Source of the DNA: Myxococcota bacterium
GTDB taxonomy: Bacteria; Myxococcota_A; Polyangia; Polyangiales; JANWZI01
Assembly: GCA_025054695.1 (NCBI GenBank)
Contig: JANWZI010000006.1
Coordinates: 996-64,995, forward strand
DNA: 64,000 nucleotides
Reading direction: 5' to 3'
The notes beneath the pieces were generated by a model. It saw only the letters and a list, made by a program, of their open reading frames with translations, was not told the DNA's origin and made no database searches. The position numbers were made by a program, and so were the translations under genes. Shown here in pieces: positions 4,399 through 62,430 of this stretch. The number at the start of each line of letters is the position of its first letter. Position 1 is the stretch's first letter.

Positions 4399-4565
4399 CG
4401 GCACTGCGCGGCTGCGTCGATGACAGCTGCGGCGAGGGCTTCGGAGAGGGGCGCGCATTCAGGCTCGGGCCCGGACTGCCACGCGGAGTCGGAGTCGGAC
4501 TCCACCTCGGTTCCGGACTCGCAGTACGCCTCGGTGGAACCGACCGCCGTGACCGGCGATGCGAC
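4393..4565. repeat. hexamer-tract inverted-repeat intergenic element, copy E1
   Basis: Left arm GCCTGACGGCACTGCGCGGCTGCGTCGATGA contains the TGA of the Trx-rhodanese gene. The tract is of the GGAGTC/GGACTC type (about 4465-4520). Module CTCGCAGTACGCCTCGG, right arm ...CCGTGACCGGCGATGCGAC. Coordinates are +/-10 nt. Confidence 0.7.
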
Positions 4566-4577
4566 GCCGGGCTCGCA

Positions 4578-4689
4578 CGCTCAGCGCCGATCAGGTTGGT
4601 TGAGGGTACGAACCGATGTGCCGAGCCCGAGCTCGAGTCCGCGTCCGAGCCCGAGTCGCGATCAACCAACCTGACCGCCGCCGTCAGAC
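4578..4689. repeat. hexamer-tract inverted-repeat intergenic element, copy E2 (tandem to E1)
   Basis: A perfect 13-bp inverted repeat, TCAGGTTGGTTGA (4591-4603) and TCAACCAACCTGA (4662-4674), encloses the tract CCGAGCCCGAGCTCGAGTCCGCGTCCGAGCCCGAGTCG. The right arm is CTGACCGCCGCCGTCAGAC. Confidence 0.85.
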
Positions 4690-4802
4690 TCCCGGTCGGC
4701 CATCGAATCCGAAAGGGCCTCGCCCCCGAAGGCCGGCGCGCCCGCGGGGCGGCGCCGTGGATTGGGGGCACGGTGGGCTTGTCCCCGACGGCGCGCGGCT
4801 CC

Positions 4803-6896
<2,094 letters not shown>

Positions 6897-7030
6897 GGCC
6901 TTCGCTGTCAGCCAGGGGCTCGTACCCAGCATTCCTGCTCAGACTCCGACCGCGCCTCGATGGATCTCGCTCGGCGCTCCGCGGGCGCCGTCGGCACCCT
7001 CGGGTTGTCAGTTTTGTGTACACTCGCCGC

Positions 7031-7939: not shown

Positions 7940-8197
7940 GTCGGACGCACGGTGGCCATCACATGGGTGGACGTAACCGAGGGCTGTTGCGAGTCCGAGT
8001 CCGAGACCGAGTCCAGGACCGAGTCGGAGTCCGAGTCCGAGACTGAGTCTGAGTCGGAGCCCGAGTCCGAGTCCAAGACCGATCCCGAGTGCGAGACCGA
8101 GCTCGAGATAGAGCCCAGGTCCGAGACACTGCCCGAGTCCGGAGATCAAGCCCGAGCTCGAACCGCGGTCCGCTCACCTGGCCGCCGCTGTCAGCGG
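7940..8197. repeat. hexamer-tract inverted-repeat intergenic element, copy E3
   Basis: Left arm GTCGGACGCACGGTGGCCATCACATGGGTGGA, module CGTAACCGAGGGCTGTTGCGAG (7972-7993), 25 in-phase GAGNCS units (7991-8140), right arm GAACCGCGGTCCGCTCACCTGGCCGCCGCTGTCAGC containing the cyclophilin stop. Confidence 0.9.
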
Positions 8198-9168
8198 CTT
8201 CTCGGCTCGTCGCCGCGTCGGCGGCGCTCAGGCCCCTGCTCGGTGGGTCCAGGACTCGCGCCGCGTGGGCGGTCGAACGTCACACCGGGCTGCTCGCGAG
8301 GTGGTGTCGGCCGCGCGGCCGCGGCGCCGCCGGGGACGCGGCGAATGAGCAGCCGCGTGATCGGAACGGGTGTCAGCGGACGGTGATCGGGCCGACCCGT
8401 CTGCGGGACGCGGGCGATGATCGAGACGGTTTCGGTGGGGACGCAGTGGCCGAAAATGGTGGAGCCGCCGTCGAGCTGGGGTGCCGGTCCGTCGGTGATG
8501 AAGAACTGGGCGCCGTATACCCCCGGTCCCTCGTTCGCCATGCACAGCAGCCCGGCACGGTCGTGGTGGCGCAAGGTTTCGTGGATCTCGTCGGGTAACT
8601 GGTAACCGACGCGTCCCGTGCCATCGCCGAGCAAATCGCCACCCTGGATGAGGAAGCCCGGAATGACGCGATGGAACGTGAGGTCGCGATAGTACGGTCG
8701 CCGCACCCACGCCCCGGCCCGCGGATCCCAGAAAGCTCTGAGGCCTCGCGCCAGGCCAATGAAGTTGGCCACCGTCCGCGGCGCGCGATCCGCGTACAGA
8801 TCGCAAAAGAGCACACCGAGGTCCGTCGCGATTTCCGCGACGAGCTGCCCATCGAGAGGAAGGCCGGCCACCGCTTCCTCGAGCGTGAACTGGCCGCCAT
8901 GCGGATCGGGCTCGGTCGGCTCGAGGACGAGTCGTTCGCGCTCACGCGCGGCGCGCTGCTCGCCCGGCCGCGACGGCTGCGGCCCCGCGGTGGGCTCATC
9001 GGCGAAGATCACCTCCGTGCCATCTTCGAGCCGCGCCCGCTGCCCCGATGACCTTGCGCCCTGGGCACGTGGCTCGGGCGCCGTCGAGGGGCCGCCGGAG
9101 CAGTGCACGGTCTCGCAGCCCAACAGCAGTGCGAGCGAGAGCGCAGCGCTCGGTCGCACGATTCGCAT
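8191..9168 (-). CDS. cyclophilin-type peptidyl-prolyl cis-trans isomerase, lipoprotein
   Basis: ORF 8191..9237 trimmed to the Met giving MRIVRPSAALSLALLLGC (lipobox). Cyclophilin motifs are FHRVIPGFLIQGGD and GLLCMANEGPGVYGAQFFIT. The stop (TCA 8191-8193 on +) lies in the E3 arm. Confidence 0.85.
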   Translation of the reverse strand: MRIVRPSAALSLALLLGCETVHCSGGPSTAPEPRAQGARSSGQRARLEDGTEVIFADEPTAGPQPSRPGEQRAARERERLVLEPTEPDPHGGQFTLEEAVAGLPLDGQLVAEIATDLGVLFCDLYADRAPRTVANFIGLARGLRAFWDPRAGAWVRRPYYRDLTFHRVIPGFLIQGGDLLGDGTGRVGYQLPDEIHETLRHHDRAGLLCMANEGPGVYGAQFFITDGPAPQLDGGSTIFGHCVPTETVSIIARVPQTGRPDHRPLTPVPITRLLIRRVPGGAAAARPTPPREQPGVTFDRPRGASPGPTEQGPERRRRGDEPRSR

Positions 9169-12260: not shown

Positions 12261-12788
12261 ATGCTCGATTCCATGAGCACCGAGCCGCCTCCGCCCGCCG
12301 ACGCGCCGCCGGCGGCAGAGGGCCCGTCGAGTGCGCCCGACGGCGCCGACGAGGACGTCTCGGAGCGGGAGCAACGACGACGGGGCATCGAGCGGGCGCT
12401 CCGGGATCTGGTGCGCAAGGCGCTCGAACGCGGGCTCGAGGTGGGCCTCGACCGGCTCGGCAAGACGAACAGCGCGATCGGCGAGATCCTCGGCAGCGGC
12501 CAGAACCTCTCTCGCGAGGTGGTCGGGTTCGTCTTCGCGCAGCTCGACGAGACCAAGAATGCGCTCGTGCGGGTCGTCGCGCGCGAGGTGCGCGAGTTCC
12601 TCGAAGCGACCGACATCGCGGCCGAGGTCCGCAAGGCCTTGACGAGTCTCTCGTTCGAGATCCGCACGGAGATCCGCTTCGTTCCCAACGAGGCCGGCGC
12701 GCTGCGCCCCGAGATCCGCTCGCGACCTACCGTGGCCGTGCGTCGCCGTGACCGAGAGTCGGACGGCGAAACGACGGGGGACGGATAA
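12261..12788 (+). CDS. hypothetical protein
   Basis: ORF track. Strong GC3 codon bias, TAA stop, no motif recognised. An alternative Met lies at 12273. Confidence 0.65.
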   Translation: MLDSMSTEPPPPADAPPAAEGPSSAPDGADEDVSEREQRRRGIERALRDLVRKALERGLEVGLDRLGKTNSAIGEILGSGQNLSREVVGFVFAQLDETKNALVRVVAREVREFLEATDIAAEVRKALTSLSFEIRTEIRFVPNEAGALRPEIRSRPTVAVRRRDRESDGETTGDG

Positions 12789-12837
12789 CGACGGTCGCGT
12801 GGGTCGAGGCAATACGGCGACCCGGATTCTCGCGCTC

Positions 12838-12946
12838 CGCCTCGCGGCGCCGGCCAGGTTGATGGATTGCGCCTTCTCCTCGGACTCGGGCCAGGACTCG
12901 CAACACTCCTCGGCTACGTCAAGCAACGTGACCGCCGCTGTCAGAC
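12838..12946. repeat. hexamer-tract inverted-repeat intergenic element, copy E4 (short tract)
   Basis: Left arm ...GCGGCGCCGGCCAGGTTGATGGA, a short tract CTCGGACTCGGGCCAGGACTCG, module CTCGCAACACTCCTCGGCTACG (12897-12918), right arm TCAAGCAACGTGACCGCCGCTGTCAGAC (12919-12946). Confidence 0.88.
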
Positions 12947-13021
12947 CCGGAATCCGTTTCGGGCGCCGTCGCCAATGCGGCTTCGATCCGCCAGAAGCCG
13001 ATGTCGGCTCGTGCGTCGTGC

Positions 13022-13513
13022 TCAGCGCTCCGAGTCGCCAGCGCACGGAGCCTCCGAAACGCCGGACGCCATCGCGTGCGCCTGCTCCAGATCGGAGGGC
13101 AACGGGAGTCGTGCGCGCTCGAGCGCGCGGCGCAGCGCGACGAGCGAGGAGGCCAGACACGGTGCGACGATCTCCCACGCACCCTGCATCTCCGGCTCTT
13201 CGGACCAGCGCGCAATCGCGATGTTGGCGTCGGCGAGCCACTGCTCGACGCGTGCGAGGGCGGTCATGACCTCGCGGGCCTGTTCGGGTGGACGACGTCG
13301 GGTCTCGGCGCGGTCGATTTCGGCGACCACGCGCCCGGCCAGATCGACCGTCGATCGAGCGTGGCGCAGCGCAGGGTCGGCGCCGCCGCATGCCGGCTGC
13401 GAGGCGAGGGCGAGCAGCGTGAGCAGGCCGCCGGGTGGGCGGCGGGCGCGGCGTGGCGCGCCACGCGCGGAAACCGGCGTACCCGTCGGCGCGCGCCGCA
13501 GAACCCGACGCAC
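13022..13513 (-). CDS. hypothetical lipoprotein
   Basis: ORF track. Lipobox [15 protein letters not shown] and GC3-rich codons. It is divergent from folD with a 28-nt spacer. Confidence 0.55.
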
Positions 13514-13541
13514 CGCCGCGGCATGCTACAAGCGGCCGTCG

Positions 13542-14411
13542 ATGCCGGCCAGATGGATCGACGGTCGTGAGGTGGCGGCGTGCGTGCGGCGTGCCGTGGG
13601 TGCCGCGGCGGCCAGGTTTTCCGAGCGGACGGGCCGCGCGCCGGGCCTGGAGGTGGTGCTCGTCGGCGACGACCCGGCGTCGCATCTGTACGTGCGCAAC
13701 AAGGAGCGCGCCGCGGTCGAGTGCGGCATCCGCGGGCACGTGCACCGGCTTGCCGCGACGAGCACGCAGGACGAGGTGCGGACGTTGGTCGCACGACTGG
13801 GCGAGCGCGACGACGTCGACGGCATCCTCGTGCAGCTTCCGCTGCCGTCGGGAATCGACGCGCGTGCGGTGCTCGATGCCATCGATCCGGAGCGCGACGT
13901 CGACGGTCTTCACCCGGTCAACGCGGGCCGGCTCGCATCCGGTCGTCCGGGGCTGCGGCCTTGTACGCCGGCCGGCTGCATGCGGCTGCTCGACGCCGTC
14001 GGCTTCGACGTTCGCGGTCGGCACGCGCTGGTCGTCGGACGCAGCGCGCTGGTGGGCAAGCCCGTCGCGCTCATGCTGCTCGAACGCGACGCCACGGTCA
14101 CGATCGCCCACAGCCGCAGTACGGACCTCGAATCGCTCTGCAAGCGGGCCGACGTTCTCGTCGTCGCGGTGGGGCGTCCTGGCCTCGTCCGAGGCTCCTG
14201 GATCCGCCCCGGGGCGGTCGTCCTCGACGTCGGCACGACGCGCGGAGCCGACGGGAAGCTGCGCGGGGACGTCGATCCGTCGGCCGCCGAGCACGCTGCC
14301 TGGATGACCCCTGTTCCCGGGGGTGTCGGTCCGATGACCGTGGCCATGCTGCTCGCCAACACCATCGAGGCGGCCTACCGGCGCGCGGGGCTCGAACCAC
14401 CGACCTGCTGA
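13542..14411 (+). CDS. folD: bifunctional methylenetetrahydrofolate dehydrogenase / methenyl-THF cyclohydrolase
   Basis: Inner ATG of ORF 12867..14411. Motifs are [45 protein letters not shown] and [14 protein letters not shown]. The stop TGA 14409-14411 lies in the E5 arm. Confidence 0.93.
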
Positions 14412-14505
14412 CGCCGACGCTCGCGCGGCTGGGGCGAGGAGCGGAACGCGGACTCGGGCTCGGGCTCGCAACACCCCGCCGCCACGTCAAGCAACGTGAC
14501 CGCCG

Positions 14506-14512
<7 letters not shown>
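14406..14512. repeat. hexamer-tract inverted-repeat intergenic element, copy E5 (short tract)
   Basis: It fills the whole folD/aminotransferase convergent gap. The left arm TGCTGACGCCGACGCTCGCGCGGCTGGGG holds the folD TGA. Tract GGACTCGGGCTCGGG, module CTCGCAACACCCCGCCGCCACG, right arm TCAAGCAACGTGACCGCCGCTATCC holding the aminotransferase stop. 24 of 24 nt are identical to E4 (14484-14507 vs 12916-12939). Confidence 0.88.
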
Positions 14513-15654
<1,142 letters not shown>

Positions 15655-17315: not shown

Positions 17316-17520
17316 GAGCGCCGATGGGGTGGATGCCTCGCCCCGTCGTGTGGTGACCCGAGTCGGAGCCGGGGATCGAGCCCGGGGCGGAGACGGATCC
17401 CGGGTCCGAGTCCGAGGCGAGTCGGAGTTCGAGTCCAAGTCCGTGTCCGAGCCCGAGCCGGAGCCCGAGGCCGAGTCCGAGACCGCGCTGGAGGGTGGTT
17501 CGACCGGACCGCACAGCTCA
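17311..17520. repeat. hexamer-tract inverted-repeat intergenic element, copy E6
   Basis: Convergent gap. The left end CGTGAGAGCGCCGATGGGGTGGATGCC contains the TGA at 17313-17315. GAGNCS-type tract at about 17357-17485. The right arm GGTTCGACCGGACCGCACAGCTCAGC holds the hydrolase stop (17518-17520). Confidence 0.75.
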
Positions 17521-18414: not shown

Positions 18415-19514
18415 GTCGAAAACCTCCGGATCGAGACGTTGGTGAGCAAGCCGATGCCGACGAGGGTCGCGAACACGTTCGAACCCCCGTACGAGAACAG
18501 CGGCAGCGTCACGCCGACCACCGGCAGCAGTCCCATGACCATGCCGAGATTGATGACGGTGTGCCAGAAAAGGAACGCGCAGACGCCCACTGCGAGGACG
18601 GCGCCGAAGCGGTCGCGCGCCAGGCTCGCGACGTGCAGCCCCCGGAGCACCACGAACGCGTAGAGCGCGAGGAGCAGCAGCACGCCGAGCAGTCCCTGTT
18701 CCTCCGCCCAGACGGCGAACGGGAAATCGGTGTACTGGTCGGGAAGAAAGTGCAGCTGGTTCTGGGTCCCCTGCATGAAGCCCTTGCCCCACAATCCGCC
18801 CGAACCGATCGCGATGAGGGACTGGCGCGCATGCCAGCCGCTGTCGAGGACGTCCGTGGTCGGATCGAAGAACGCGCGCAGACGGTCACGCTGATAGTCG
18901 GCGAGCACGAAGTGCCAGCCCAGCGGCGCGGCGCCCACCGCGAGCGCGAGCAGCGTGACGAGGGACCTGCGTCGAAGCGGAACCAAAAGCATGACGGTCG
19001 CGAAGATGAGCGCGAGCAGAACGGCGGTGCCGAGGTCCGGCTGAAGCAGAATGAGCACCATCGGCAGGGCGAGCACCAGCCCCGGCGCGAGCAGATCGCG
19101 CAGCGAGCGCTCCTCGCTCCTCGGATCCCGATGCAGCACCTTGGCGAGCGCGACGAGCACCGCGAGCTTGACGATCTCGCTCGGCTGCAACGTGAAGCCG
19201 GCGACCTCGATCCAACGGGACGAGCCCCGAATCGTCTTGCCCACGAGCAACACGAGGCCCAGCAGCACCGTCGCGCCTCCGTACAGCCACCAGGCCAGTC
19301 GTTCGTAGTGCCGATAGTCGATGGCCGCCACGAGGACCGCGGTGCCGGCACCGAGCGTAAGCCAGTAAATCTGCGTGACGTAGATCTCGGCCAATCGCGC
19401 CGATTCGCTGCTCGATGCGCTGTACAGATTGATGACGCCGATGACGGCGAGCGCCGCGACCGCGATGAACAGCGGCCAGTCGAACGCCTCACGCGCTCGA
19501 CGTCCGAGCCGCAT
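18411..19514 (-). CDS. rodA: SEDS-family peptidoglycan polymerase RodA
   Basis: Inner Met (MRLGRRAREAFDWPLFIAV) of ORF 18411..20093. Multi-TM protein with the C-terminal motif LPLFSYGGSN. Its ATG overlaps the mrdA TGA (ATGA at 19512-19516). Confidence 0.9.
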   Translation of the reverse strand: MRLGRRAREAFDWPLFIAVAALAVIGVINLYSASSSESARLAEIYVTQIYWLTLGAGTAVLVAAIDYRHYERLAWWLYGGATVLLGLVLLVGKTIRGSSRWIEVAGFTLQPSEIVKLAVLVALAKVLHRDPRSEERSLRDLLAPGLVLALPMVLILLQPDLGTAVLLALIFATVMLLVPLRRRSLVTLLALAVGAAPLGWHFVLADYQRDRLRAFFDPTTDVLDSGWHARQSLIAIGSGGLWGKGFMQGTQNQLHFLPDQYTDFPFAVWAEEQGLLGVLLLLALYAFVVLRGLHVASLARDRFGAVLAVGVCAFLFWHTVINLGMVMGLLPVVGVTLPLFSYGGSNVFATLVGIGLLTNVSIRRFST

Positions 19515-24099: not shown

Positions 24100-24300
24100 G
24101 GGAGCGACGGGTCACGGACATGCTCTCGGGCTTGTGCACGGGCTCCGGCTGCGGCGCCAACGCGGGGTCGACGCGCGACGCAGGCCCGGATTCGGACTCG
24201 GGCTCCGAATCGGCCTCGGACTTCGGCTCGCACGACGCTCCGGCGTCGCCTCGCCGACGCGATCGAGCCGGGCGTGCGCGGACCGATCAGCGGCAGACGG
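24100..24300. repeat. degenerate copy of the same element family, E7
   Basis: Left arm-like GCGACGGGTCACGGACATGCTC, a short tract GGATTCGGACTCGGGCTCCGAATCGGCCTCGGACTTCGG, module-like CTCGCACGACGCTCCGGCG, and a right end at the GH1 stop (GATCAGCGGCAGACGG). Weaker match. Confidence 0.5.
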
Positions 24301-29849: not shown

Positions 29850-30090
29850 TCCACACCGAGTCGAACGATGCTCCCGGCCACCTCGGAGGTCTCTGGGCTC
29901 GGGTTCGGCCGCGGGCCCCCTCTCGGACTCGGCCACGGACTCTGGCTCGGCCTCGGGCTCAGCCTCGGACTCTGTCTCGGACTCGGACCCGGACTCTATC
30001 TCGGACTCGGGCTCCGACTCGGTCTCGGTCTCGGACACGTTCTCGGTCTCGGGGTCCGACTCGGGCTCGACGTCGGCGCGCGTCAAAGAC
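29850..30090. repeat. hexamer-tract inverted-repeat intergenic element, copy E8
   Basis: 24 in-phase SGNCTC units (29925-30068). The right arm-like CGTCGGCGCGCGTCAAAGAC holds the stop of the CCP-fusion gene (30083-30085). The left arm is poorly conserved. Confidence 0.7.
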
Positions 30091-34325: not shown

Positions 34326-37313
34326 ATGAAATGGCACCCCTTGCTGTGGCTCGTGCTGGTGGTCGGTTGTGACTGCGGGGACGGAACGACCCCTTCGGAC
34401 GCGGGCCCGGCGGACGTTCCGGTCACCGACCGGCCAGCCGTCGACGTGACGGGCGAACAGCCCGAAGAACCGGACGGGGGCGGACCGTGCGTCCGGGTTC
34501 GGACGCTCGGGGCCGACGGCCGGCGCGCGTCGCCCGACGGCATCGGCGGCAGCGGGGACCTCGAGATCGTCAACGGCGTGCTTCGCGCGGTCATCGCCGC
34601 CCCTGCACGCACCGCCCACTACGCGGCAAGCGGAGGCACGCTCGTCGATCTGCACCTGCTCGGTGAAGGCGACTCGCTCAACGAGCTGTCCCAGCTCGGC
34701 AGCCCCGCACAGGCCTCGCAGGTGCGCTACACGGAGCTCGAGGTCGTCGAGCAAAGCGAGATGCGCGCGATCGTGGAGGTGCGCGGGCACGTGCAGCTCG
34801 CGCCTCGTCCGCCCGGTGGCACCGATCCCATCTCGCCGCATCCGGGAACGAATCTCGCCGTGACGACCCGCTATGAGGTGCGCTGTGGCGAGCGCGTCGT
34901 GCACCTCGAAAGCACGCTGACGAACGCCAGCACAACCGAGGTCTATTCGGGCACCGCCCTGCGCGTGCTCGACCTGATGCTGTGGGGTGGACGCTCGCTG
35001 CAGCCGTTTTGCCCGGTCGCGGGGCAGGGCGACCGGTGCCGGCCGTTCGACTTCTCCAATCCACTCGCGAGCCTGGTGCGTTCGCCGTACATCGGCTCGA
35101 CGGGTAGCGTGGCGGGGCCGCCGGCCTCGTTCGCGTTCTACCCGGAGGATCCGACAGCGGGGCCGTTCGTCGGCGTGCACTCGTCGCAGGTCTCCACGTT
35201 CGGCCACTTCGAGCCCGGCGTGGACTACCTGTTCATGGGCGAGTCGCGCACCTATCGGCGTGCCATTGCGGTCGGCGGGCGGGCGGACGGGGCCTCGTCG
35301 ATCGACGTCGCGCTCGAGGCGCTCGCGGCGCAGGGACGGCTGCAAATCGCCACCGTGACGGGGCGCGTCGCTCCGGCGCCCGCGGTCGGAGGAAGGCGGC
35401 CGCTGCCCGAGCACCTCTGGCCGATGGTGTTGCTCGCGACGCCTGCCGCCGAGGGGGACCCGCTCGACCCGGCGCGCTGGACGCCCATCACGATCGCGCG
35501 CGTCGGTTCCGACGGTCGCTTCACGGCGCGCGTCATTGCCGGACGAATCGGCTGGGAGCTGCGCGCGCCCGGTCGCCCGGCGCGGCGTGGCGATGGGGGA
35601 AGCGTCGAGCCCGGTGGGACGCTGGACCTCGGAGTCCTCGACGTGCCCGAGCTGCCCGTCGTCTCGGTCAGCGTCCGCGAGCGGACCGCGAGCGGCCCGG
35701 TCGGCTTGCCGGCGCGCGTGACGGTGGTCGGCGTCGACGGGACGCCGACGCCGCAGCTCGGTCCCGACGGCGGACCGTCGCCGTCGCTCAACCTCGCGCT
35801 CACCGACGGGTTCGGCGAGCTCGAGCTGCGCTTGCCGGAGGGCCGGTACGACGTCTATGCGACGCACGGCCAGCGCTACACGGTCGCGCGCAGGCGCATC
35901 GACGTCGGCGCGGCGGGCGGCAGCGTCGAACTGGAGCTCGTGCGCCTCGACGTCGTCCCGCCGGACATGCTGACGGCGGACTTCCACGTGCACGGCGCGG
36001 CGAGCTTCGACAGTTCCCTTCCCGACCGCGACCGATTGCTGAGCTATCTGGCGGAGGGCGTCGACGTCGTCGTTTCGACCGAGCACGACGTCGTGCACGA
36101 CTACGCCGACGCGCTCGCGGCGCTCGAGGCCGAGCTTCCCCCCACGCGTCGCGGAGCGTTGCGCGCCTTCGTGGGCGTCGAGGTCACCAACTCCGTTCCG
36201 CACGGGGCGTTCCCGAACACCATCGGCCACTACAACGCCTATCCGCTCGCGGTGGTCAGCGGCGCGCGCGCCGGCGGCGCCCCCGACGACGAATACGTCG
36301 AGCCGGGCGCGCTGTACGACCGGATCCGAGCCCTCGTCGGCCCGGCAGGCACGCCGCTCGTGCAGCTCAACCACGGCCGCTCGATTCGCGCGGGCGTGGT
36401 CTGGCTCGGTTACTTCGATTCGTGCGGGTTCGACCCGACCGAGGCCATCGTCGCGGCGCATCCGTGTTGGTCTGGCGTATCCGCGGCGGGCACGCGGCCG
36501 TGGGACATCGACGCGATGGAGGTGCTCAACGGCGTCGCCGACGCGACGTACATCAACAACCTGCGCGATTGGCTCGCGGTGCTCCGTCAAGCGCCCGGCG
36601 GGCGGCTTCCCGTGGCCACGGCCAACAGCGACAGCCACCGCCTCGTCTTCGACCAGGCAGGCATGCCCGTCACGGTGTTGCGCGTCCCCGAAGGCTTGGC
36701 GGGGCTGACGGCCACGCGATTGCGCGATGCGCTGGGCTCGGGCGCGGTCGCGGGGATGGCCGGACCGTTCGTTTGGGCGCGCGCGCGCGAGGTGGGCTCT
36801 TCAGCCTCGCCGGTGGAACCCGGACGTACGGTGCTTCGCGCGCCGAGCGGGCGCGTCGAGCTGGCGCTGAGCGTGCACGCGGCCCCATGGATTCCCGTCG
36901 ACGAGATCCGCGTTCGGTGGAATGGGGAGGTCGTCGTGCGCATCGGGCGTGCGATGCTCGCGCACCCGACCGACCCCTTTGGGACCGAGGGCGTGGTGCG
37001 CTTCGAACGCACGGTCGCGCTCCCGGCCGTCGGCTCGGATGGATTCATCGTCGCCGAAGCGGGGTTCGCGCTGGGTCCCGTCGCGGACGTGGACGGAGAC
37101 GGCGTCGCGGATGCGACCGACCGCGATGGCGACGGAGACATCGACGCCGAGGACGCGAGGCTCGGCGGCATCGACCTCGGAGCGGTGCCCGAGCCGCTCG
37201 GAACGCTGTTCCCCTCGGCGCGTCCCGTCGGCTTCACCAATCCCATCTTCGTCGACGTCGACGGAGACGGCGACTACGACCCACCGAACAGCCCGCTTCC
37301 GCCGGAGGTCTGA
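34326..37313 (+). CDS. large lipoprotein with a PHP/CehA-McbA-like metallohydrolase domain and C-terminal Asp-rich Ca-binding-like repeats
   Basis: Inner ATG of ORF 34116..37313 gives MKWHPLLWLVLVVGC/DCG (lipobox). Motifs are DFHVHGAASFDS...VVVSTEHD and the C-terminal DVDGDGVADATDRDGDGDIDAED...VDVDGDGDYD. The stop TGA 37311-37313 lies in the E9 arm. Confidence 0.75.
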   Translation: MKWHPLLWLVLVVGCDCGDGTTPSDAGPADVPVTDRPAVDVTGEQPEEPDGGGPCVRVRTLGADGRRASPDGIGGSGDLEIVNGVLRAVIAAPARTAHYAASGGTLVDLHLLGEGDSLNELSQLGSPAQASQVRYTELEVVEQSEMRAIVEVRGHVQLAPRPPGGTDPISPHPGTNLAVTTRYEVRCGERVVHLESTLTNASTTEVYSGTALRVLDLMLWGGRSLQPFCPVAGQGDRCRPFDFSNPLASLVRSPYIGSTGSVAGPPASFAFYPEDPTAGPFVGVHSSQVSTFGHFEPGVDYLFMGESRTYRRAIAVGGRADGASSIDVALEALAAQGRLQIATVTGRVAPAPAVGGRRPLPEHLWPMVLLATPAAEGDPLDPARWTPITIARVGSDGRFTARVIAGRIGWELRAPGRPARRGDGGSVEPGGTLDLGVLDVPELPVVSVSVRERTASGPVGLPARVTVVGVDGTPTPQLGPDGGPSPSLNLALTDGFGELELRLPEGRYDVYATHGQRYTVARRRIDVGAAGGSVELELVRLDVVPPDMLTADFHVHGAASFDSSLPDRDRLLSYLAEGVDVVVSTEHDVVHDYADALAALEAELPPTRRGALRAFVGVEVTNSVPHGAFPNTIGHYNAYPLAVVSGARAGGAPDDEYVEPGALYDRIRALVGPAGTPLVQLNHGRSIRAGVVWLGYFDSCGFDPTEAIVAAHPCWSGVSAAGTRPWDIDAMEVLNGVADATYINNLRDWLAVLRQAPGGRLPVATANSDSHRLVFDQAGMPVTVLRVPEGLAGLTATRLRDALGSGAVAGMAGPFVWARAREVGSSASPVEPGRTVLRAPSGRVELALSVHAAPWIPVDEIRVRWNGEVVVRIGRAMLAHPTDPFGTEGVVRFERTVALPAVGSDGFIVAEAGFALGPVADVDGDGVADATDRDGDGDIDAEDARLGGIDLGAVPEPLGTLFPSARPVGFTNPIFVDVDGDGDYDPPNSPLPPEV

Positions 37314-37595
37314 AGGCGGCGGTCACGTCGTTCGATCGCGCATCGGTCGTAGCCTGCTCGCGGGCTGGGGCTTCGTGTCGGACTCGGTCTCGGACTCGGT
37401 CTCGGACTCGGATTCGGTCTCGGACTCGGACTCGGACTCGGGTTCGGAGCCGGAGTCAGGCTCGGGCTAGGACTCGGACTCAGGCTCCGACTCTGGCTCC
37501 GACGCGGACTCCGGCTCGGTCTCGGTCTCAGTCTCGGTCTCGGACCCCGAGGACTGCGTGGCGAGCTCGTTCGAACCGACCGGCGTGCACAGACC
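37308..37595. repeat. hexamer-tract inverted-repeat intergenic element, copy E9
   Basis: The left arm GTCTGAAGGCGGCGGTCACGTCGTTCGA (37308-37335) holds the TGA at 37311-37313. Then GTCGTAGCC, 28 in-phase GNCTCG units (37375-37542), module-like CCGAGGACTGCGTGGCGAG, and right arm CTCGTTCGAACCGACCGGCGTGCACAGAC. Confidence 0.9.
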
Positions 37596-37610
37596 CCGCT
37601 CGGCGTATGG

Positions 37611-38212: not shown

Positions 38213-40015
38213 CTAGATGCGCAAGACGGCCTCGAGCTCCACGCCTTCGAATGCCGGCACGTCCCGGCACACGCCGTTGGAGCACAGCCTTGTGGCCGGC
38301 GTCCGCCCTGCGAACAGGCGCAGGGTGTGCCGACCATCGCCCAGTTGCCAGCGCGCTTCGAGGCCGGGGTACAGATTGCGGCCCGCGGTGAGCGGACCGA
38401 GCCGAAGGCCCGGCACGTCGCGCTCGGTGTTCCACAGCAGCATGGGAGCGACGGACAGATCGGTGTCGGCATTCGCGTAGCTGATCGTGAGGCCGCCACG
38501 GCGCCATGGCGCGAGCCGCCCGCGGACGTCGCGGCGGCGTTCCTCGCGGTGCTCGAGGCGGATTTCCAGCGCGTGGATGCCCGACGAGAGGCCGAAGTCC
38601 ACCGTACCGTGGACGGTGCTCCATTCGAGATCCCCGGAACCCACGCCTGGATAGGGGGATTGCTCGAGGAACACATGCCGCCGGACGCCGGCGACGACGG
38701 TGAGCGACCAGTCGGTCTCGGCTCCGATCGCGCGCCGTTCGATCTCGAGCCATCCGTGCCCTACCGCGCGCGCCCTCGAGCCCGTCCACGGGTCCTCGCG
38801 GGCGTCGGGAGAGTGACCGTAGCCGGCTAGGCCCGCCGTCGCGCTCCAGGGACCTGGCTCGAAGCCGTGCCCCACGCGCAGGGCCGCCCCGCGCGCGTTG
38901 CTCGCGTCTTCCATGACCTCGCCCGTGCGATCGAGCACGGGGGCGGTCCCGTAGGTGCGCCGGGGCGGCGCGCCGTCAGGCGCGAGTAGGAACGCTCGCA
39001 AATCTTGTACATCGACCTGGACGCTCGTCGGCCCCGCCGACCAGACGACCTGCGCGAGGGCGGCGCGACCCCAGCGCCGTCGGTGCAGGCCGAGGCGACG
39101 CTGCACGTGGTCGAGCCGCATCGCGTCGGCCTCGAGATGAACCGCGATCGAGCCGTCGAACAGCGATGGCGCCGTCATCCGCCAGCCGAGCACCCAGCCG
39201 TCCGCGGTGATCGCGCTCTCGGGGTCCTCGTCGAACCAGGCGCGGACCGCGTGCGCGGCGAGCTCGATGTCTCGATGCGCGCCGAGGCGGCCGCCGCCCT
39301 CCGCGACGAGCAGCACGTCGCGCCCGTCGGGCACGACGGCCATGTCCTCGAGCCGATCGACGTTCTGCGGATTGACGGCGCCGCCGACGGGGAGCAGCAG
39401 GGTGCCGGCCGGACCTCGGGCGTCGCGGAGCGCAGGAATCGCGAATAGGCCCCCGGCGAGCTGTCCGAACAGCCGTCCGTCGTCGTGTCCCACGCGCAAT
39501 CCGCGGTGGCTCGTGTCGACGCCGAGCGTGTCGATTCTCGTCAACGACAGCGCGATGCCGCGGCCGAGCGCGAGCGTGCCGTCTCCGAGCTCGACGAGCC
39601 ACGGCTCCGATCGCCACTGCACGCTGAGCCGCTCGAGCCGGAAGTCGGGACGGATCCGGCAGGTGGGCTCGAGCCCTTCGGGGCACGGCTGGCGCCAGGA
39701 CGCCCCGTCACGCACGAAGAGAGGAAGCAGGGCGTCGAGACGCAGCGAAACCGAGACCCGATCGCCCTGCGCGAGCATCTCGAGGCGCTCGACGCCGACG
39801 AGCACGCGGTCGTCGTGCTCGTGCACGTCCAGGTCGTCGCCGCGCCACTGAAGAAGCGAACTGCTCGTCGCGCTGAGGCTGGTCGGCCCGAGCAACGGCA
39901 GACGAGGTGGCGCGTCGGGCTCTTCGCCTGGACCGGCCGTCCCTCCGGCGTCGGACGATTGGGCCGCGACCGGCGCGCCAATCGCGACGGCCAGTAGCCA
40001 TGCGGCGCAGCTCAC
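38213..40015 (-). CDS. hypothetical secreted protein, probable large outer-membrane beta-barrel
   Basis: ORF 38213..40753 trimmed; its upstream part is only a translation of the E10 repeat tract (PSPSPSPKPS...). GTG 40015 gives VSCAAWLLAVAIGAPVAAQ/SS. The body is beta-rich with Gly/aromatic alternation. The start is uncertain. Confidence 0.55.
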   Translation of the reverse strand: MSCAAWLLAVAIGAPVAAQSSDAGGTAGPGEEPDAPPRLPLLGPTSLSATSSSLLQWRGDDLDVHEHDDRVLVGVERLEMLAQGDRVSVSLRLDALLPLFVRDGASWRQPCPEGLEPTCRIRPDFRLERLSVQWRSEPWLVELGDGTLALGRGIALSLTRIDTLGVDTSHRGLRVGHDDGRLFGQLAGGLFAIPALRDARGPAGTLLLPVGGAVNPQNVDRLEDMAVVPDGRDVLLVAEGGGRLGAHRDIELAAHAVRAWFDEDPESAITADGWVLGWRMTAPSLFDGSIAVHLEADAMRLDHVQRRLGLHRRRWGRAALAQVVWSAGPTSVQVDVQDLRAFLLAPDGAPPRRTYGTAPVLDRTGEVMEDASNARGAALRVGHGFEPGPWSATAGLAGYGHSPDAREDPWTGSRARAVGHGWLEIERRAIGAETDWSLTVVAGVRRHVFLEQSPYPGVGSGDLEWSTVHGTVDFGLSSGIHALEIRLEHREERRRDVRGRLAPWRRGGLTISYANADTDLSVAPMLLWNTERDVPGLRLGPLTAGRNLYPGLEARWQLGDGRHTLRLFAGRTPATRLCSNGVCRDVPAFEGVELEAVLRI

Positions 40016-40019
40016 GGAG

Positions 40020-40335
40020 GCAGACAGGTTACTCGATCGCGGTCTCGGCTTCGGACTCGGCTTCGGACTCGGACTCGGACTCGGACTCGGTCTCCGACTC
40101 GGTCTCGGACTCGGTCTTGGGCTCGGTCTCCGACTCGGACTCGGTCTCCGACTCGGTCTCGGACTCGGTCTTGGGCTCGGTCTCCGACTCGGACTCGGAC
40201 TCGCTCTCGGTCTCGGACTCAGGCTCCGCCTCGGTCCCGGCTCGGCCTCGGGTTCGGAACCGGATGCCGGCCCGGCCGCGAAAACGCGCCTCGGCGCCGT
40301 CCACGAAAGTGGCCGGCGCCGTCGGGTGCGACTTA
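40020..40335. repeat. hexamer-tract inverted-repeat intergenic element, copy E10 (longest tract)
   Basis: 33 in-phase SGNCTC units (40041-40238), including an exact 54-nt duplication (40089-40142 = 40143-40196). The right arm CGCCTCGGCGCCGTCCACGAAAGTGGCCGGCGCCGTCGGGTGC ends at the stop of the 40333 gene. The left arm is weak (CAGACAGGTTACTCGA). Confidence 0.8.
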
Positions 40336-41967: not shown

Positions 41968-42170
41968 ACCGACCGTCGGCTTGCTCGCCTGCCGCTCGAG
42001 CTCCGGATCGGCCCCGGACCCGGTCTCAGCCCAAGACGCTGGCACCGTCTTCCTCTCCGTCTCGGTCTCGGTCTCGGACTCGGACTCGGGATCGGGTCCG
42101 ACGTCGGTCTCGGGCACGGAGTCGGGAAACTGCCAGGCGACATCGACCAAAACGACAGCCGCCGTCGGTC
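41968..42170. repeat. probable copy of the same element family, E11 (in a divergent promoter region)
   Basis: Tract GTCTCGGTCTCGGTCTCGGACTCGGACTCGGGATCGGGTCCGACGTCGGTCTCGGG (about 42058-42113). Right arm-like CATCGACCAAAACGACAGCCGCCGTCGGTC. The left arm is weak. Confidence 0.55.
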
Positions 42171-42244
42171 GCCGTCGCGCGCACGCGTCGCGTGCCGGGA
42201 ACGAGGCGCGTCGATCGCGCGATGAAACGTGCGTGCGCCCGACC

Positions 42245-43402: not shown

Positions 43403-43674
43403 GCCTCGTCGCGCGGCGCCCCGATGGCTCGTGCGTGTGGCTCGTCGAGCTGGCGGGCAAGGAGGTTCGGTTGCGCGCCGAGGATCCCCTCCCGCCGGGG
43501 CGGCCGTTGGACCTGGTTTTCGAGCTCCCCGATGGGGCGGCACCGCTCTCGATCAAGGTTTCCACGTGCCGCAGGCTCGGCGAGAAAGAGTACGAAGTGC
43601 GCGCGCGGCTGCTCGATCTGTCGCTCGCGCAGGGTCGGCGCCTCGCGCGATGGCTCGAGACGCAACGCGGCTGA
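43399..43674 (+). CDS. small hypothetical protein (PilZ-like beta-barrel suspected; canonical c-di-GMP motifs not seen)
   Basis: Inner ATG of ORF 43114..43674, overlapping the smpB stop (ATGA at 43399-43402). A 91-aa protein, MSLVARRPDGSCVWLVELAGKEVRLRAEDPLPPGRPLDLVFELPDG.... The stop TGA 43672-43674 lies in the E12 arm. Confidence 0.5.
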   Translation: MSLVARRPDGSCVWLVELAGKEVRLRAEDPLPPGRPLDLVFELPDGAAPLSIKVSTCRRLGEKEYEVRARLLDLSLAQGRRLARWLETQRG

Positions 43675-43975
43675 CGGTGGCGCGTCGACCGCGAGGCTGC
43701 TCGGCGCTGTGGCATCTCGGACGCGAATGGAGGTCCGGGTTGGACTCGGTTCCCGAGACCGAGACCGAGACAGAGTTCGAGTCCGAGTCCGAGACAGAGA
43801 CAGAGACCAAGGCCGAGATGGAGACCGAGCCCGCATCCGACTCCGAGACCGAGTCCGAAACCGAGCCCGAGCCCGACTCGGGGCCCGAGTTCGAATCCGA
43901 GACAGAGGCCGAGTCCGCGTTTCAGTCGGAACCGGAATCCGCGGCCGAGTGGGTGCAGGCCGCGCCGTCAGGAGG
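43669..43975. repeat. hexamer-tract inverted-repeat intergenic element, copy E12
   Basis: Convergent gap. The left arm GGCTGACGGTGGCGCGTCGACCGCGAGGCTGCTCGG holds the TGA at 43672-43674. GAGNCS tract at about 43750-43925. The right arm GCCGAGTGGGTGCAGGCCGCGCCGTCAGGAG holds the EVE stop (43968-43970). Confidence 0.88.
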
Positions 43976-45394: not shown

Positions 45395-45690
45395 CCCAGG
45401 CCGTGGCGATCGGTTCGGTTCCGCGTGCCGCGTGGGTCGTTCGAGTCCGTGCTCGAGTCGGGCTCCGAGCCTGGACCCGTGCCCGAGCTCGAGCCCGAGC
45501 CCGCGTCCGAGTCCGAGGCCTAGCCCGAGACCGAGACCGTGCCCGAGTCTGAGCTCGAGCCCGCGCCCGCGTCCGAGCCCGAGTCCGGGGCCGAGCCCGA
45601 TCCAGAGTTGCGCCGCGGCGTCGTCCTGCGGCGGACCCGACGCAAGCGTGACGGGCGTCGTTGCGGGGACCCGTTCGTCGCCTTCAGACT
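45395..45690. repeat. hexamer-tract inverted-repeat intergenic element, copy E13 (in a divergent promoter region)
   Basis: Left CCAGGCCGTGGCGATCGGTTCGGTTCCGCGTGCCGCGTGGGTCGTTCGAGTCC. GAGNCS tract at about 45440-45600. Right arms CGCAAGCGTGACGGGCGTCGTTGCGG and CCGTTCGTCGCCTTCAGAC, ending about 10 nt before the ATG at 45698. Confidence 0.75.
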
Positions 45691-45697
45691 CGAGCCG

Positions 45698-46714
45698 ATG
45701 CGCGGCAGCACGTGCAGTTGGATCCTCGTCCTGGCGGCCGTGGGGTGTGGAGACGGCACCACGCCCAACGATCCGCCGCGGTTCGAGGTCGTGCTCGAAG
45801 ATCTTCCGGGTGCCCTCATCTCGGTGTGGGGCCGATCCGCGACGGAGGTCTGGACGGTCGGCGGGGACGAAGGCGGCGGACGCGGCCCGATCGTGCTGCG
45901 CTACGACGGGAGCATATGGCGACGCGTGTCGACCGGGCTCGACGGCGGAGAGCTGTGGTGGGTGCACGGCACGAGCGACGGCGCGGTCTACGTGGGAGGC
46001 ACCGGCGGTGTGATTCTCCGCTGGCGGGACGGGCGATTCGAGCGCATGCCGACGCCGGGCACCGACACGGTGTTCGGCATCTGGGCCGCGGCGCCCGACG
46101 ACGTGTGGGCGGTGGGCGGCACGGGAACGTCCGGTGCGTTCGCGTGGCGCTTCGACGGGCTGTCCTGGCGCTCGGTGGCGCTGCCCGACGAAGTGACCGA
46201 CGCCTCGCTCTTCAAGGTCTGGGGCCGCGGTCGTGATGACGTGTGGTTGTGCGGGAGCCGCGGTCTGCTGTTGCACTGGAACGGCGAGCGCTTCGAGCGC
46301 GTCGCGTCCGGCACCACGCGCACGCTGTTCACGGTGCACGCACGCGACGACCAAATCGCCGTCGTGGGCGGGGCAGGCGAGGGAGTCGTGCTCGAGTGGC
46401 GCGAGGGTGGCTGGCAGGACGCGACGCCACGCGGCGCCGTCATGACGATGGGAGTCTGGCTCGACGCCGCGGATGGGGGATGGGCCGTTGGCCTCAACGG
46501 CGCGATGCTGCGCCGCGAGAGGGGGCGCTGGGTGACCTTCGATTCCGGGATCGGCGTGCTCGGCGGACTGCACGCGGTCTGGGTTGATCCCGATGGGGGC
46601 ATCTGGGCCGTCGGAGGACAGGTGCTCGCGCGCCCGCTGGTCGACGGCACGCTGTTGCATGCCGGCGCGCCGGTGTCGCGATCCATCGTCGACGAGGGAG
46701 CCCTTGCACCCTGA
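45698..46714 (+). CDS. beta-propeller-repeat lipoprotein
   Basis: Inner ATG of ORF 45539..46714 gives MRGSTCSWILVLAAVGC/GDG (lipobox). Repeated blades (VWTVGG, VYVGGTGG, VWAVGGTG, IAVVGGAG, GWAVGLNG, IWAVGG). The stop TGA 46712-46714 lies in the E14 arm. Confidence 0.75.
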   Translation: MRGSTCSWILVLAAVGCGDGTTPNDPPRFEVVLEDLPGALISVWGRSATEVWTVGGDEGGGRGPIVLRYDGSIWRRVSTGLDGGELWWVHGTSDGAVYVGGTGGVILRWRDGRFERMPTPGTDTVFGIWAAAPDDVWAVGGTGTSGAFAWRFDGLSWRSVALPDEVTDASLFKVWGRGRDDVWLCGSRGLLLHWNGERFERVASGTTRTLFTVHARDDQIAVVGGAGEGVVLEWREGGWQDATPRGAVMTMGVWLDAADGGWAVGLNGAMLRRERGRWVTFDSGIGVLGGLHAVWVDPDGGIWAVGGQVLARPLVDGTLLHAGAPVSRSIVDEGALAP

Positions 46715-46985
46715 CGGCGCCGCGCGCACTCGTCGTCGTCGGTCGTCGACTCCGCGTACGCCTCGGAGTCGGGTTCCGTCTCGGACTCGGGTTCCGTCTC
46801 GGTCTCGGTCTCGGGCTCAGACTCGGTCTCCGACTCGGCCTCGGACCCGGGATCGGGCTCAGTCCTGGTCTCGAGCTCGGTCTCGGTCTCCGAATCGGAC
46901 ACGGACTCGGACTCGGCCGCGGTTTCGGTGTCGGCCTCGGATCCGACGCGGGCCGATCCATCCGTTCGTCGCCTTGGAGTGGACT
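46709..46985. repeat. hexamer-tract inverted-repeat intergenic element, copy E14
   Basis: The left arm CCCTGACGGCGCCGCGCGCACTCGTCG holds the TGA at 46712-46714. Module-like CGCGTACGCCTCGG. SGNCTC tract at about 46770-46945. The right end TCCGTTCGTCGCCTTGGAGTGGAC shares CCGTTCGTCGCCTT with E13. Confidence 0.85.
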
Positions 46986-47061
46986 TGTCCGTGCGGTGAG
47001 CCTCGGGCCGGCAGGCAGCGGTCGTCCCGCATCCGCGTTGCGCGTATCGGGGCCCGGCCTC

Positions 47062-48587: not shown

Positions 48588-48760
48588 GTCCATGGCCTGC
48601 TCCTCCGCACCTGGCGAGCGCGGATTTCGATCGGTGCTCGGCGGCGTGGGTCGATCGAGTTTGTGGAATCGAGCCTGGCCTCGGACTCCGCGTCCGGCGT
48701 ATCCGCGCCAGCGCACTCGATGCCGAAGTGATGCGCCGTCGCCACGGCCTTCGTCAGACA
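48583..48760. repeat. degenerate, nearly tract-less relative of the same family, E20
   Basis: GGTTGAGTCC at the GT2 stop, a mini-tract CCTCGGACTCCGCGTCCGG, and the right arm-like GTCGCCACGGCCTTCGTCAGAC (compare E9/E13 GCCGCCTTCAGAC). Weak. Confidence 0.3.
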
Positions 48761-48872
48761 AGTCTCGTGCACGGAGGGCATCGCCGCGCCCTTGCCGCCG
48801 TCGGACGCGCTGACTATGGTGCCCAATGCGTGATCCTCTGCGTGGGTCGCGCCTTGCGAGGCGGAGCGAGCC

Positions 48873-51305: not shown

Positions 51306-51376
51306 GCCAGACGGCGCAATGGCCTCGCCGAGCAGGTCGATCACCGACGGGAGGTGTGTCTCGGGTCGGCGTGGGA

Positions 51377-51625
51377 GTCTGACGGCGGCGGTCACGTGGG
51401 CTCGATGTAGCCGACGCATGTTGTGAGACCGGGTCCGAGTCGCGTCGGAGTCCGTCTCGTCCAAGTGGGAGTCGGAGCTCGAGACGGAGACCGAAGCCGA
51501 GACCGAATCGGAGTCCGAGACGGAGTGATAGCCAGAGCCCCCGCTGAAGTCCGATTCCCGAGCCCGACCCGAGGTATCCGGGCCCCGACTTCGACGTCGG
51601 CTCGAGCGGTTCCAGCCGTCAGCAC
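51377..51625. repeat. hexamer-tract inverted-repeat intergenic element, copy E15
   Basis: Best-preserved left arm GTCTGACGGCGGCGGTCACGTGGGCTCGA (51377-51405), module ATGTAGCCGACGCATGTTGTGAG (51405-51427), GAGNCS tract at about 51430-51590, and right arm CGAGCGGTTCCAGCCGTCAGCAC holding the protease stop (51619-51621). An extra arm-like fragment lies at 51302-51376, starting at the lon TGA. Confidence 0.9.
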
Positions 51626-54199: not shown

Positions 54200-54420
54200 C
54201 GCCGACGGTCGGCGGTCGGCTGCCGCACGACTGGCGGTCGAGGTCCGGACCGAGTCGAGACTCGGGCTGGGACTCGGACTCGGGCTCGGTCTCCGAACCG
54301 GCGTCGGACACGGAGCGCGGGCTCCAGCTCGGACCGCCGGGCCATTGCGACCTCGAAGCGCACCTTGCCGGGGCGAAGGCATCGGGGTCGTCTCCGCGAA
54401 ACGGAGCAGCCCATCGTCAG
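54200..54420. repeat. hexamer-tract inverted-repeat intergenic element, copy E16
   Basis: Left arm GCCGACGGTCGGCGGTCGGCTGCCGCACGAC, a short tract (54240-54300), right arm AACGGAGCAGCCCATCGTCAGCGC holding the permease stop (54417-54419). Confidence 0.7.
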
Positions 54421-56655: not shown

Positions 56656-56937
56656 CGGACCCACGGCGGCGGTCACCTGGGGACGACGCGCCCGAGGGCT
56701 GTTATGAATCAAGCCCCGAGCTCAGGTCCAAGTCCAAACCCGAGTCAGACTCCGATCCCGAGCTCGAGCCGGATAGCAGCGATCCCGTCGATCGACGATG
56801 CCGAGGGGCATGGCGATTCCGAGGCCGTTTCAGAGCCCGAGCCGGAGGCCGAGGCCGAGCCTGCGCTCCGAGCCCGACTCCCCCCCCGAGACCGAGGTGG
56901 AACCGCGGCCACCCAACGTGGCCCCTGCTGTCGGACT
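56656..56937. repeat. hexamer-tract inverted-repeat intergenic element, copy E17 (in a divergent promoter region)
   Basis: Left arm GGACCCACGGCGGCGGTCACCTGGGGACGACG, module CCCGAGGGCTGTTATGA (12 nt, CCGAGGGCTGTT, are identical to E3), a GAGNCS-type tract, right arm GAACCGCGGCCACCCAACGTGGCCCCTGCTGTCGGAC (compare the E3 right arm). Confidence 0.88.
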
Positions 56938-57168
56938 CCAGTTCGGTACTCGGGGCGGGACTCGACTTCGAACCGGTTGCCCAAAGCCCCTCGTGCGTTC
57001 CTGCTGGAGGCCGGTGGACGAACGCCCGCGCGGGGCAAACCGACGGCACTCCGCCGGACGTGTACTCTAGACCGCAGTTCCGTGTGCGCGGCGCCGCGTG
57101 TTGAGTGTGGCCAAGCGCCGGCGTCGGCTCGCTTTTCGAGGGAACGGCGCGTGCAATAGGCTTCCCCC

Positions 57169-62318: not shown

Positions 62319-62430
62319 GCGGACACCGAGAGCTCTTTCGGACTCGGACTCGGACTCGGACTCGGACTCGGCCTCCGACTCGGTCTCGGACTCGGACTCG
62401 CACACGGTCTCCGCTCGCGCGGATGTCAGC
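62314..62430. repeat. hexamer-tract inverted-repeat intergenic element, copy E18
   Basis: It fills the moaC/membrane-protein convergent gap. CGTGAGCGGACACCGAG at the moaC TGA, 10 in-phase units (62341-62400, 8 of them GACTCG), module-like CTCGCACACGGTCTCCGC, and the right end GGATGTCAGCC holding the downstream stop (62426-62428). Confidence 0.75.

Follow-up and report, generated by a model that had tools for sequence, protein, structure and literature searches.

Bacterial genomes are normally repeat-poor. The bacterial interspersed mosaic elements (BIMEs) of Escherichia coli are extragenic repeats of the repetitive extragenic palindromic (REP) type and serve here as one comparison. REPINs are short, extragenic, non-coding repeats of high copy number in which two conserved inverted sequences surround a more variable spacer; they are inherited vertically within one lineage, with decay of singlets (Bertels and Rainey 2011, PMC3116915). 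Miniature inverted-repeat transposable elements (MITEs) such as Correia/NEMIS, ERIC/IRU, RUP and Nezha are intergenic, measure 100–330 nt, carry terminal inverted repeats, form sub-families and can supply stop codons or alter gene ends. The 64-kb window analysed here (the whole stretch of DNA, 72% G+C, from a metagenome-assembled genome (MAG) of an uncultured Myxococcota bacterium) contains a repeat family that resembles both classes in all of these respects and, like REPINs and BIMEs, prefers gene 3′ ends and convergent junctions. Our starting point is a pair of its members, E4 and E5, which lie 1.57 kb apart in the same orientation. We consider it probable that E4 and E5 belong to a lineage-specific, non-coding, REPIN/MITE-like family with a minisatellite core, and that they owe their identity to a local event and not to fresh transposition. 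The family is previously undescribed: literature searches on the repeat strings, on myxobacterial MITEs and REPs and on hexanucleotide repeats returned no description of such elements.

The 24-mer ACGTCAAGCAACGTGACCGCCGCT is found exactly twice in the window, at 12916–12939 in E4 and 14484–14507 in E5, both times on the plus strand. There is no further copy within 3 mismatches, and none of 100 shuffles gave any match. Each copy is preceded by CTCGCAACAC (12897–12906 and 14465–14474), which occurs nowhere else in the window and for which 0.16 occurrences are expected; this and the other string expectations given below are based on composition. In an all-against-all local alignment of 36 arm regions, E4_L and E5_L score 33.5, compared with 20.5 for the next pair and a maximum of 16 for shuffled arms. 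An earlier note on this DNA had claimed the 24/24-nt arm identity, the identical preceding string and a likeness far above the family average, and all three are confirmed. Read in element orientation, the two loci match at 24/24, then 6/10, then 9/9 and then 13/16 positions, and they are ~87–88% identical across ~59–62 nt without gaps. The likeness stops at the element borders, and the unique flanks differ. The segment between the arms (13022..14411) contains a gene for a 163-aa hypothetical protein (13022–13513, minus strand) and folD (13542–14411, plus strand). E5, a minimal unit, occupies precisely the 94 nt that separate folD from a DegT-family gene, and both flanking stop codons lie inside its arms, of which the right one is weak. 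A weak match to the arm profile at 13531–13580 (E=0.066), lying over the folD start codon (CGATGCCGGCCAGATGGATCGACGG), resembles the E4 inner arm and may be due to chance.

The sister assembly GCA_033577305.1, a short-read MAG, was compared with the window over ~60 kb and is 99.8–99.9% identical to it. Every length difference between the two lies within an element, namely at E4, E8, E18 and a break at E14. The sister array is 84 nt longer at E8 (14 units, in one block), and the window is one hexamer (6 nt) longer at E18, at position 62366; the arrays therefore behave like minisatellites, with gain and loss by whole units or blocks. At E4 the window is 95 nt longer, which accounts for most of the element, and the sister keeps a 23-nt arm-like sequence, AGGCGGGCTCACCCTCCGTGTCG, between two GACCCGG repeats. 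GACCCGG(A) flanks the difference, but the sister allele, whose arms are retained, has both copies as well. The surrounding patch (12722..12945) contains 23 single-nucleotide polymorphisms (SNPs), mostly at third codon positions of the gene at 12273–12788. The strain comparison that the earlier note proposed thus reveals two alleles of the E4 site in nature. Further SNP clusters lie at 18483–18570, 20114–20200, 38270–38291, 41190–41298 and 42191–42227, with 4–10 SNPs per 20–110 nt and long, perfectly identical stretches between them, as expected of a population with recombined or alternative haplotypes. Upstream of the window the sister contig contains coding DNA only.

We favour a local event for E4–E5 because the likeness ends at the element borders, the two units are the pair closest in space, and in the sister haplotype the arm at E4 has diverged while E5 is identical. 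The identity would have arisen by gene conversion (non-reciprocal recombination) or by duplication, either of which could act over 1.57 kb between units in the same orientation; fresh transposition would be less likely. The arrays would change by replication slippage or unequal recombination, and the arms, once an old phase of dispersal was over, would have decayed more or less neutrally. The genome probably tolerates the elements at gene 3′ ends as selfish or neutral DNA, with any role in termination or insulation putative and secondary.

An unlikely alternative, though one that deserves a hearing, is that these are currently active non-autonomous transposons of the REPIN/RAYT or MITE type, E4 or E5 being a recent insertion derived from one master copy shared by both, and E3/E17 and E13/E14 further young sub-families. 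The inverted-arm architecture, the near-perfect hairpin of E1b and the characters common to both arms of E3 and E17 at a distance of 48.7 kb are consistent with such activity. So are the presence/absence-like polymorphism of E4, with GACCCGG on both sides, and the arm TGA codons that serve as stops of flanking genes, as they would after insertion into gene ends. The sister E4, however, is not an empty site: it retains two arms and both GACCCGG copies, with synonymous differences nearby. No target-site duplication is recognisable at E1b, E3, E9 or E17, and no transposase is present among the called genes of ~70 kb of genome. Most arms have decayed, and the sole very close pair consists of physical neighbours. 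The analysis turned up neither a target-site duplication nor an empty site nor a transposase; transposition is therefore not shown, and the recent transposition offered as one origin in the earlier note is not supported.

Strings shared by distant copies give a more mixed picture. The 12-mer CCGAGGGCTGTT occurs at 7977–7988 in E3 and 56692–56703 in E17 (0.007 expected), and the 14-mer CCGTTCGTCGCCTT at 45671–45684 in E13 and 46962–46975 in E14 (0.0016 expected). The 9-mer GAACCGCGG is found 3 times with 2.6 expected, which alone is chance level, and the 11-mer GTACGCCTCGG 3 times, once within a gene; random 90-nt pieces of the window often have 10–12-mers in common. All of the sub-motifs listed in the earlier note are therefore where it placed them, but the last two are within chance. 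Among the arms, E3_L and E17_L score 20, above the null, and the right arms of these units are also alike. E13_R and E14_L reach a borderline 14; the two arms are neighbours, lie in direct orientation and enclose a single gene, a layout that resembles that of E4 and E5. Most arm pairs score at noise, which indicates that the family is old and its arms largely decayed, with one local pair that is very close in sequence and a distant one that is moderately so. Sub-family structure is weak beyond E4/E5 and E3/E17, and the characters common to both arms of E3 and E17 are the only hint of dispersal. Neighbouring units in the window resemble each other slightly more than random pairs do (p=0.023), an effect driven by E4/E5. 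The earlier note's description of recent copies, as opposed to decaying relics, fits the length differences inside elements but not the arms, since only ~10/18 units keep at least one recognisable arm (E<0.1).

The repeat family itself, as the earlier note proposed, is real. Eighteen arrays or units were counted in the window (Table 1). A full unit runs from an arm of ~40–55 nt through an imperfect tandem GAGNCC array to the same arm inverted, and terminal inverted repeats are present in units of the family. The arm follows the pattern GTCTGACGGCGGCGGTCACGTTG..TTGACGTAGCCGAGG..TGTTGCGAG, with the middle motif also written GACGTAGCCGAGG, and the inverted arm is written ..CAACSTGACCGCCGCCGTCAGAC; the inner motif GTGTTGCGAG is conserved in E3, E4, E5 and E15. 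Self-complementarity within the arm is confined to TGAC..GTCA (4 bp) around GGCGGCG, without a GTAG-type head. An arm profile (nhmmer) built from 13 arms matches 15 arms at E<0.03, every one of which adjoins an array, and three more at E<0.1. Paired inverted arms are present in E1b, E3, E4, E9 and E17. Among the units folded, only E1b forms a convincing hairpin, which is long (z-scores of −2.2 and −4.1 versus shuffles).

The arrays span 24 to ~210 nt, corresponding to 4 to ~35 GAGNCC units, and are detected by TRF as head-to-tail repeats with a period of 6 nt. A CRISPR-type layout, with identical repeats of 24–48 nt and unique spacers, is absent, since the arrays repeat every 6 nt and lack spacers. 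Across 328 hexamers from all arrays of the 18 units, five positions are 73–90% conserved (G.90, A.83, G.83, then C.89 and C.73) and the fourth is almost free (T.42, C.24, A.23, G.11). A diversity-generating retroelement was dropped as a reading because the A at position 2 is conserved and position 4 is the free one. The E10 array (40044–40251) has a higher-order period of 54 nt (3.9 copies, 87% match), which suggests growth by duplication of nine-unit blocks and not of single units.

Table 1. Units of the repeat family and associated features in the window (window coordinates; E-values from nhmmer)
Feature	Position	Strand	Remarks
E1a	4399..4692 (with E1b)	-	array 4437-4532
E1b	4574-4692	+	most intact copy; 13-nt exact inverted repeat TCAGGTTGGTTGA
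E3	7942..8199	+	arm, array of ~27 units, arm; stop of PPIase gene (8191-8193) on the TGA position of the arm
Extra weak arm near E4	12779..12808	+	E=0.094; carries TAA stop of gene 12273-12788; sister allele also has an arm at this place
E4 inner (right) arm	12839..12874	+	E=3.4e-5; inverted relative to 12911-12947
E4 array	12870..12911	-	short GAGNCC array, ~5-7 units
E4 inner motif	12897..12906	-	GTGTTGCGAG (CTCGCAACAC on plus strand); joins arm to array
E4 outer (left) arm	12911..12947	-	GTCTGACAGCGGCGGTCACGTTGCTTGACGT; E=2.9e-8, best profile match; holds the 24-mer
E5 degenerate right arm	14405..14430	+	CTGCTGACGCCGACGCTCGCG; found by eye; folD stop 14409-14411; weak, 93rd percentile of position weight matrix
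E5 inner motif and array	14449..14474	-	GTGTTGCGAG and very short array GAGCCCGAGCCCGAGTCCG
E5 left arm	14481..14514	-	E=1.6e-5; holds the 24-mer; contains TAG stop of DegT-family gene (14506-14508)
E6	17347..17505	+	array, no recognisable arm
E7	24110..24229	-	array
E8	29895..30068	-	array
E9	37305..37597	-	arm, array of ~31 units, arm; arm TGA serves as stop of 999-aa gene (37311-37313)
E10	40002..40329	-	left arm and array of ~33 units
E11	41986..42171	-	divergent intergenic region
E12	43672..43970	+	array of ~35 units, between two stop codons in CTGACGG contexts
E13	45443..45690	+	array and right arm with CCGTTCGTCGCCTT
E14	46712..46999	-	array and left arm with CCGTTCGTCGCCTT
E15	51374..51525	+	consensus-like left arm and array
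E16	54258..54311	-	array
E17	56656..56939	+	arms and arrays; divergent region; arm characters in common with E3
E18	62340..62411	-	array

The units are positioned at the ends of transcription units, where they overlap stop codons and show no fixed orientation to genes. They occupy 8/10 convergent, 3/10 divergent and 6/34 co-directional gaps, and 6/8 of the co-directional gaps that exceed 100 nt. Even without the arms, the arrays cover 33% of the intergenic bases in the window. Two long co-directional gaps, at 48588–48872 (285 nt, upstream of lon) and 6897–7030 (134 nt), are free of arrays and arms and are exceptions to the near-saturation of long gaps. Five of 54 stop codons exceed the 95th percentile of the arm matrix, the strong matches being those in E9 and E3. 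A gene-end motif oriented by the preceding gene was rejected because both arm orientations occur in co-directional and divergent gaps (E1a, E1b, E11, E17). Sigma-54 and sigma-70 promoters, an integron attC site and a CsrA sponge were dropped by eye, given the misfit in spacing and the housekeeping-gene setting. Rfam returned no match at the gathering score; two matches at E<0.5 to eukaryotic miRNA families, inside arrays at 17354–17431 and 45483–45558, are spurious and reflect low complexity.

Such placement raises the question of function. It is doubtful that the units are selected sites at transcription-unit ends, whether as terminators or insulators, as supercoil or gyrase sites like BIMEs, or as platforms for a CCGAG-reading protein, with the 24-mer under purifying selection. 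The idea is kept alive by the five conserved hexamer positions and by the near-saturation of transcription-unit ends that have no classical terminators: intrinsic terminators (GC-rich hairpin plus T-run) number 7 across the region against 4.9 expected, a chance level, and none is found at the elements or their gene ends. The near-absence of stop codons from the arrays is also compatible with it. Orientation is not tied to the upstream gene (5/7 informative cases), which argues against a strand-specific RNA signal. Array length ranges from 24 to 210 nt and differs between genomes that are 99.9% identical, three units are found in promoter regions between divergent genes, 8/18 units have lost their arms or show them decayed, E4 and E5 lack a stable fold, and the sister strain does without most of E4; all of these observations count against a conserved site. 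A bolder version, in which GAGNCC arrays and stop-bearing arms constitute a selected, lineage-specific ‘gene-end module’ and a new kind of bacterial intergenic element, is speculative and, in our judgement, improbable. If it were correct, a protein reading CCGAG at 6-nt intervals might act in termination, in insulation of convergent transcription or in supercoil management, array length would serve as a parameter that mutates fast and can be tuned, and genomes would be rearranged by recombination between arrays.

Could the arrays instead be coding? According to this reading, they would be low-complexity linkers, (Glu-Ser/Thr/Pro/Ala)n or (Gly-Leu)n, of mis-annotated genes, and the shared strings conserved peptides. 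Stops are nearly absent from the GAG-NCC and GGN-CTC frames, many hexamer matches in metagenomes are true Glu-Pro or Glu-Ala linkers, and annotation extends open reading frames (ORFs) into arrays, as for P0121, which starts from the E13 array, and the sister UvrC, which runs through E14. None of the six frames of GAGNCC, however, can yield a stop codon; a shortage of stops is therefore uninformative about coding, and gene callers run into the arrays for the same reason. In-frame stops interrupt the Glu-X frame in E9 and E13, and the frame between arm and array is not kept: the distance from GTCACGT to TGTTG is 20 nt in E4 and 21 nt in E15. Arrays follow stop codons and precede start codons of genes with signal peptides, the E5 arm overlaps the stop at the DegT 3′ end, and the folD stop falls within the weak right arm. 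The units lie outside the genes called in public assemblies; our own gene calls were trained on the public annotation and then checked against it. We regard the coding explanation as very improbable. The start of the public protein NZ898_02385 (391 aa; window 45539–46714) lies within the E13 array. A lipoprotein signal peptide (MRGSTCSWILVLAAVGC) begins 53 codons further on, at 45698, which implies a 338-aa form whose start is absent from the public record; the N-terminus given in the annotation is thus probably artefactual, produced by an array that lacks stops.

Repeats of this kind can also mislead assemblers, and artefacts of metagenome assembly across repeats might in principle explain either the E4/E5 identity or the differences between assemblies. 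Sister and Logan contigs do end in arrays or arms; sister contig 3, for example, ends at 45608, at the end of the E13 array. At E14, sister contig 29 departs from the window at 46902, inside the array, and continues into uvrC (L184 18222–20243), and at this join the window and the Logan contig have the lipoprotein gene and E13. The sister uvrC ORF reads through a short array and an arm to the TGA at window 46997–46999. For this difference there are two candidate causes, an array-mediated rearrangement and a chimera that the repeats induced in the sister MAG. The window structure is not an artefact of one assembler, since Logan contigs of SRR15826901 (L059, L185), our second-assembler control, reproduce both the E13-gene-E14 arrangement and E4, the window E4 allele being recovered independently in L059. 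The unique flanks of E4 and E5 differ, as noted above, and SNPs at third codon positions beside E4 point to biological variation. An artefactual origin is hardly credible.

Beyond the window, the arms look private to this lineage on the sequences compared, because none were found in relatives, in Sandaracinus, in the scan of GTDB representatives or at metagenome loci. The nearest FolD relatives are 64–68% identical and not syntenic with the window, so that they offer no orthologous E4/E5 sites; loci of FolD relatives (n=3) contain neither arms nor arrays; the tandem folD protein P0002, considered as a relative, is unrelated. Sandaracinaceae homologues of the lipoprotein are ~50% identical, and 21 kb of Sandaracinus amylolyticus contained no arms or arrays, as did ~400 kb of unrelated high-GC DNA. 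An exact 19-mer of the arm gave 54 single matches in unrelated taxa among the GTDB representatives, and none of these 54 loci carries multiple arrays. Both Myxococcota matches that were examined lie inside coding sequence, and we attribute the GTDB matches to chance. The pattern (GAGNCC)4GAG occurs at >120 metagenome loci, mostly as genuine Glu-Pro/Ala/Thr linkers in genes. A few loci are intergenic arrays (Ga0075163 contigs L080, L093, L109 and L135; L181), none syntenic with the window. On these other high-GC contigs, long GAGACC/GAGGCC arrays directly follow stop codons, some between convergent genes. The arm profile found no arm in 576 kb of metagenome loci carrying hexamer arrays, and viral contigs gave 0 arm or array matches. 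Intergenic GAGNCC arrays may thus be distributed more widely than this lineage.

Several observations weigh against our preferred reading of an old REPIN/MITE-like family with a local E4–E5 event. Membership in either class is not established and a mobile origin is deduced from architecture only; neither a target-site duplication, an empty site, a transposase nor a RAYT was seen in the material examined. E4 and E5 fold no better than shuffled sequence, and duplex energies do not differ between cognate and non-cognate arms (p=0.29). The two units are less than 100% identical, and a very recent conversion tract would be expected to be identical throughout; the perfect 24-nt run beside a 6/10 stretch could alternatively reflect selection on the arm. 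Five conserved hexamer positions next to a free position 4 are hard to square with purely neutral decay, which hints at constraint on CCGAG. The E4 alleles are further distinguished by synonymous sites in the neighbouring gene, so that their difference represents a recombined haplotype and not a clean insertion or excision. Finally, the sister is a short-read MAG, and part of the array differences could be assembly error.

A single family whose arrays alone account for a third of intergenic DNA, and whose units contain all length differences found between 99.9% identical genomes, offers a natural system for studying repeat tolerance, selfish or structural, at gene ends of high-GC bacteria that lack classical terminators. 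There are practical consequences as well, because such repeats break short-read assemblies and mislead gene callers, whose ORFs run into arrays (NZ898_02385, sister UvrC). If the conserved hexamer positions were a binding site, the arrays would represent a new type of regulatory or architectural element.

Comparison with known systems places the family near several of them. The intergenic tandem repeats of Mycobacterium (mycobacterial interspersed repetitive units/variable number tandem repeats, MIRU/VNTR) likewise occupy many loci of a high-GC genome and differ in copy number by whole units between close strains, as E8 (84 nt) and E18 (6 nt) do here. Their units, however, measure 40–100 nt and not 6 nt, the arrays described here are bracketed by inverted arms, and MIRUs lie inside operons, where some are translated. 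Phase-variation microsatellites are also slippage-prone short repeats that change length between near-identical genomes, but act in promoters and 5′ coding regions; the arrays described here lie downstream of genes, at almost every transcription-unit end, and consist of imperfect 6-nt units that keep frame. With respect to MITEs, we know of no cognate insertion sequence (IS) for this family, its members show no recognisable target-site duplication, and the internal array varies in length. In contrast to REPINs, the arm does not constitute a short palindrome headed by a GTAG-type motif, the arms enclose a hexanucleotide minisatellite of up to 210 nt where REPINs have a short unique loop, most copies do not seem to fold into hairpins, and neither a RAYT nor another transposase is encoded among the called genes of the ~70 kb. 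The architecture is nevertheless closest to that of REPINs and bacterial MITEs, and is set apart from them by its minisatellite core and by arms that do not form a palindromic REP unit.

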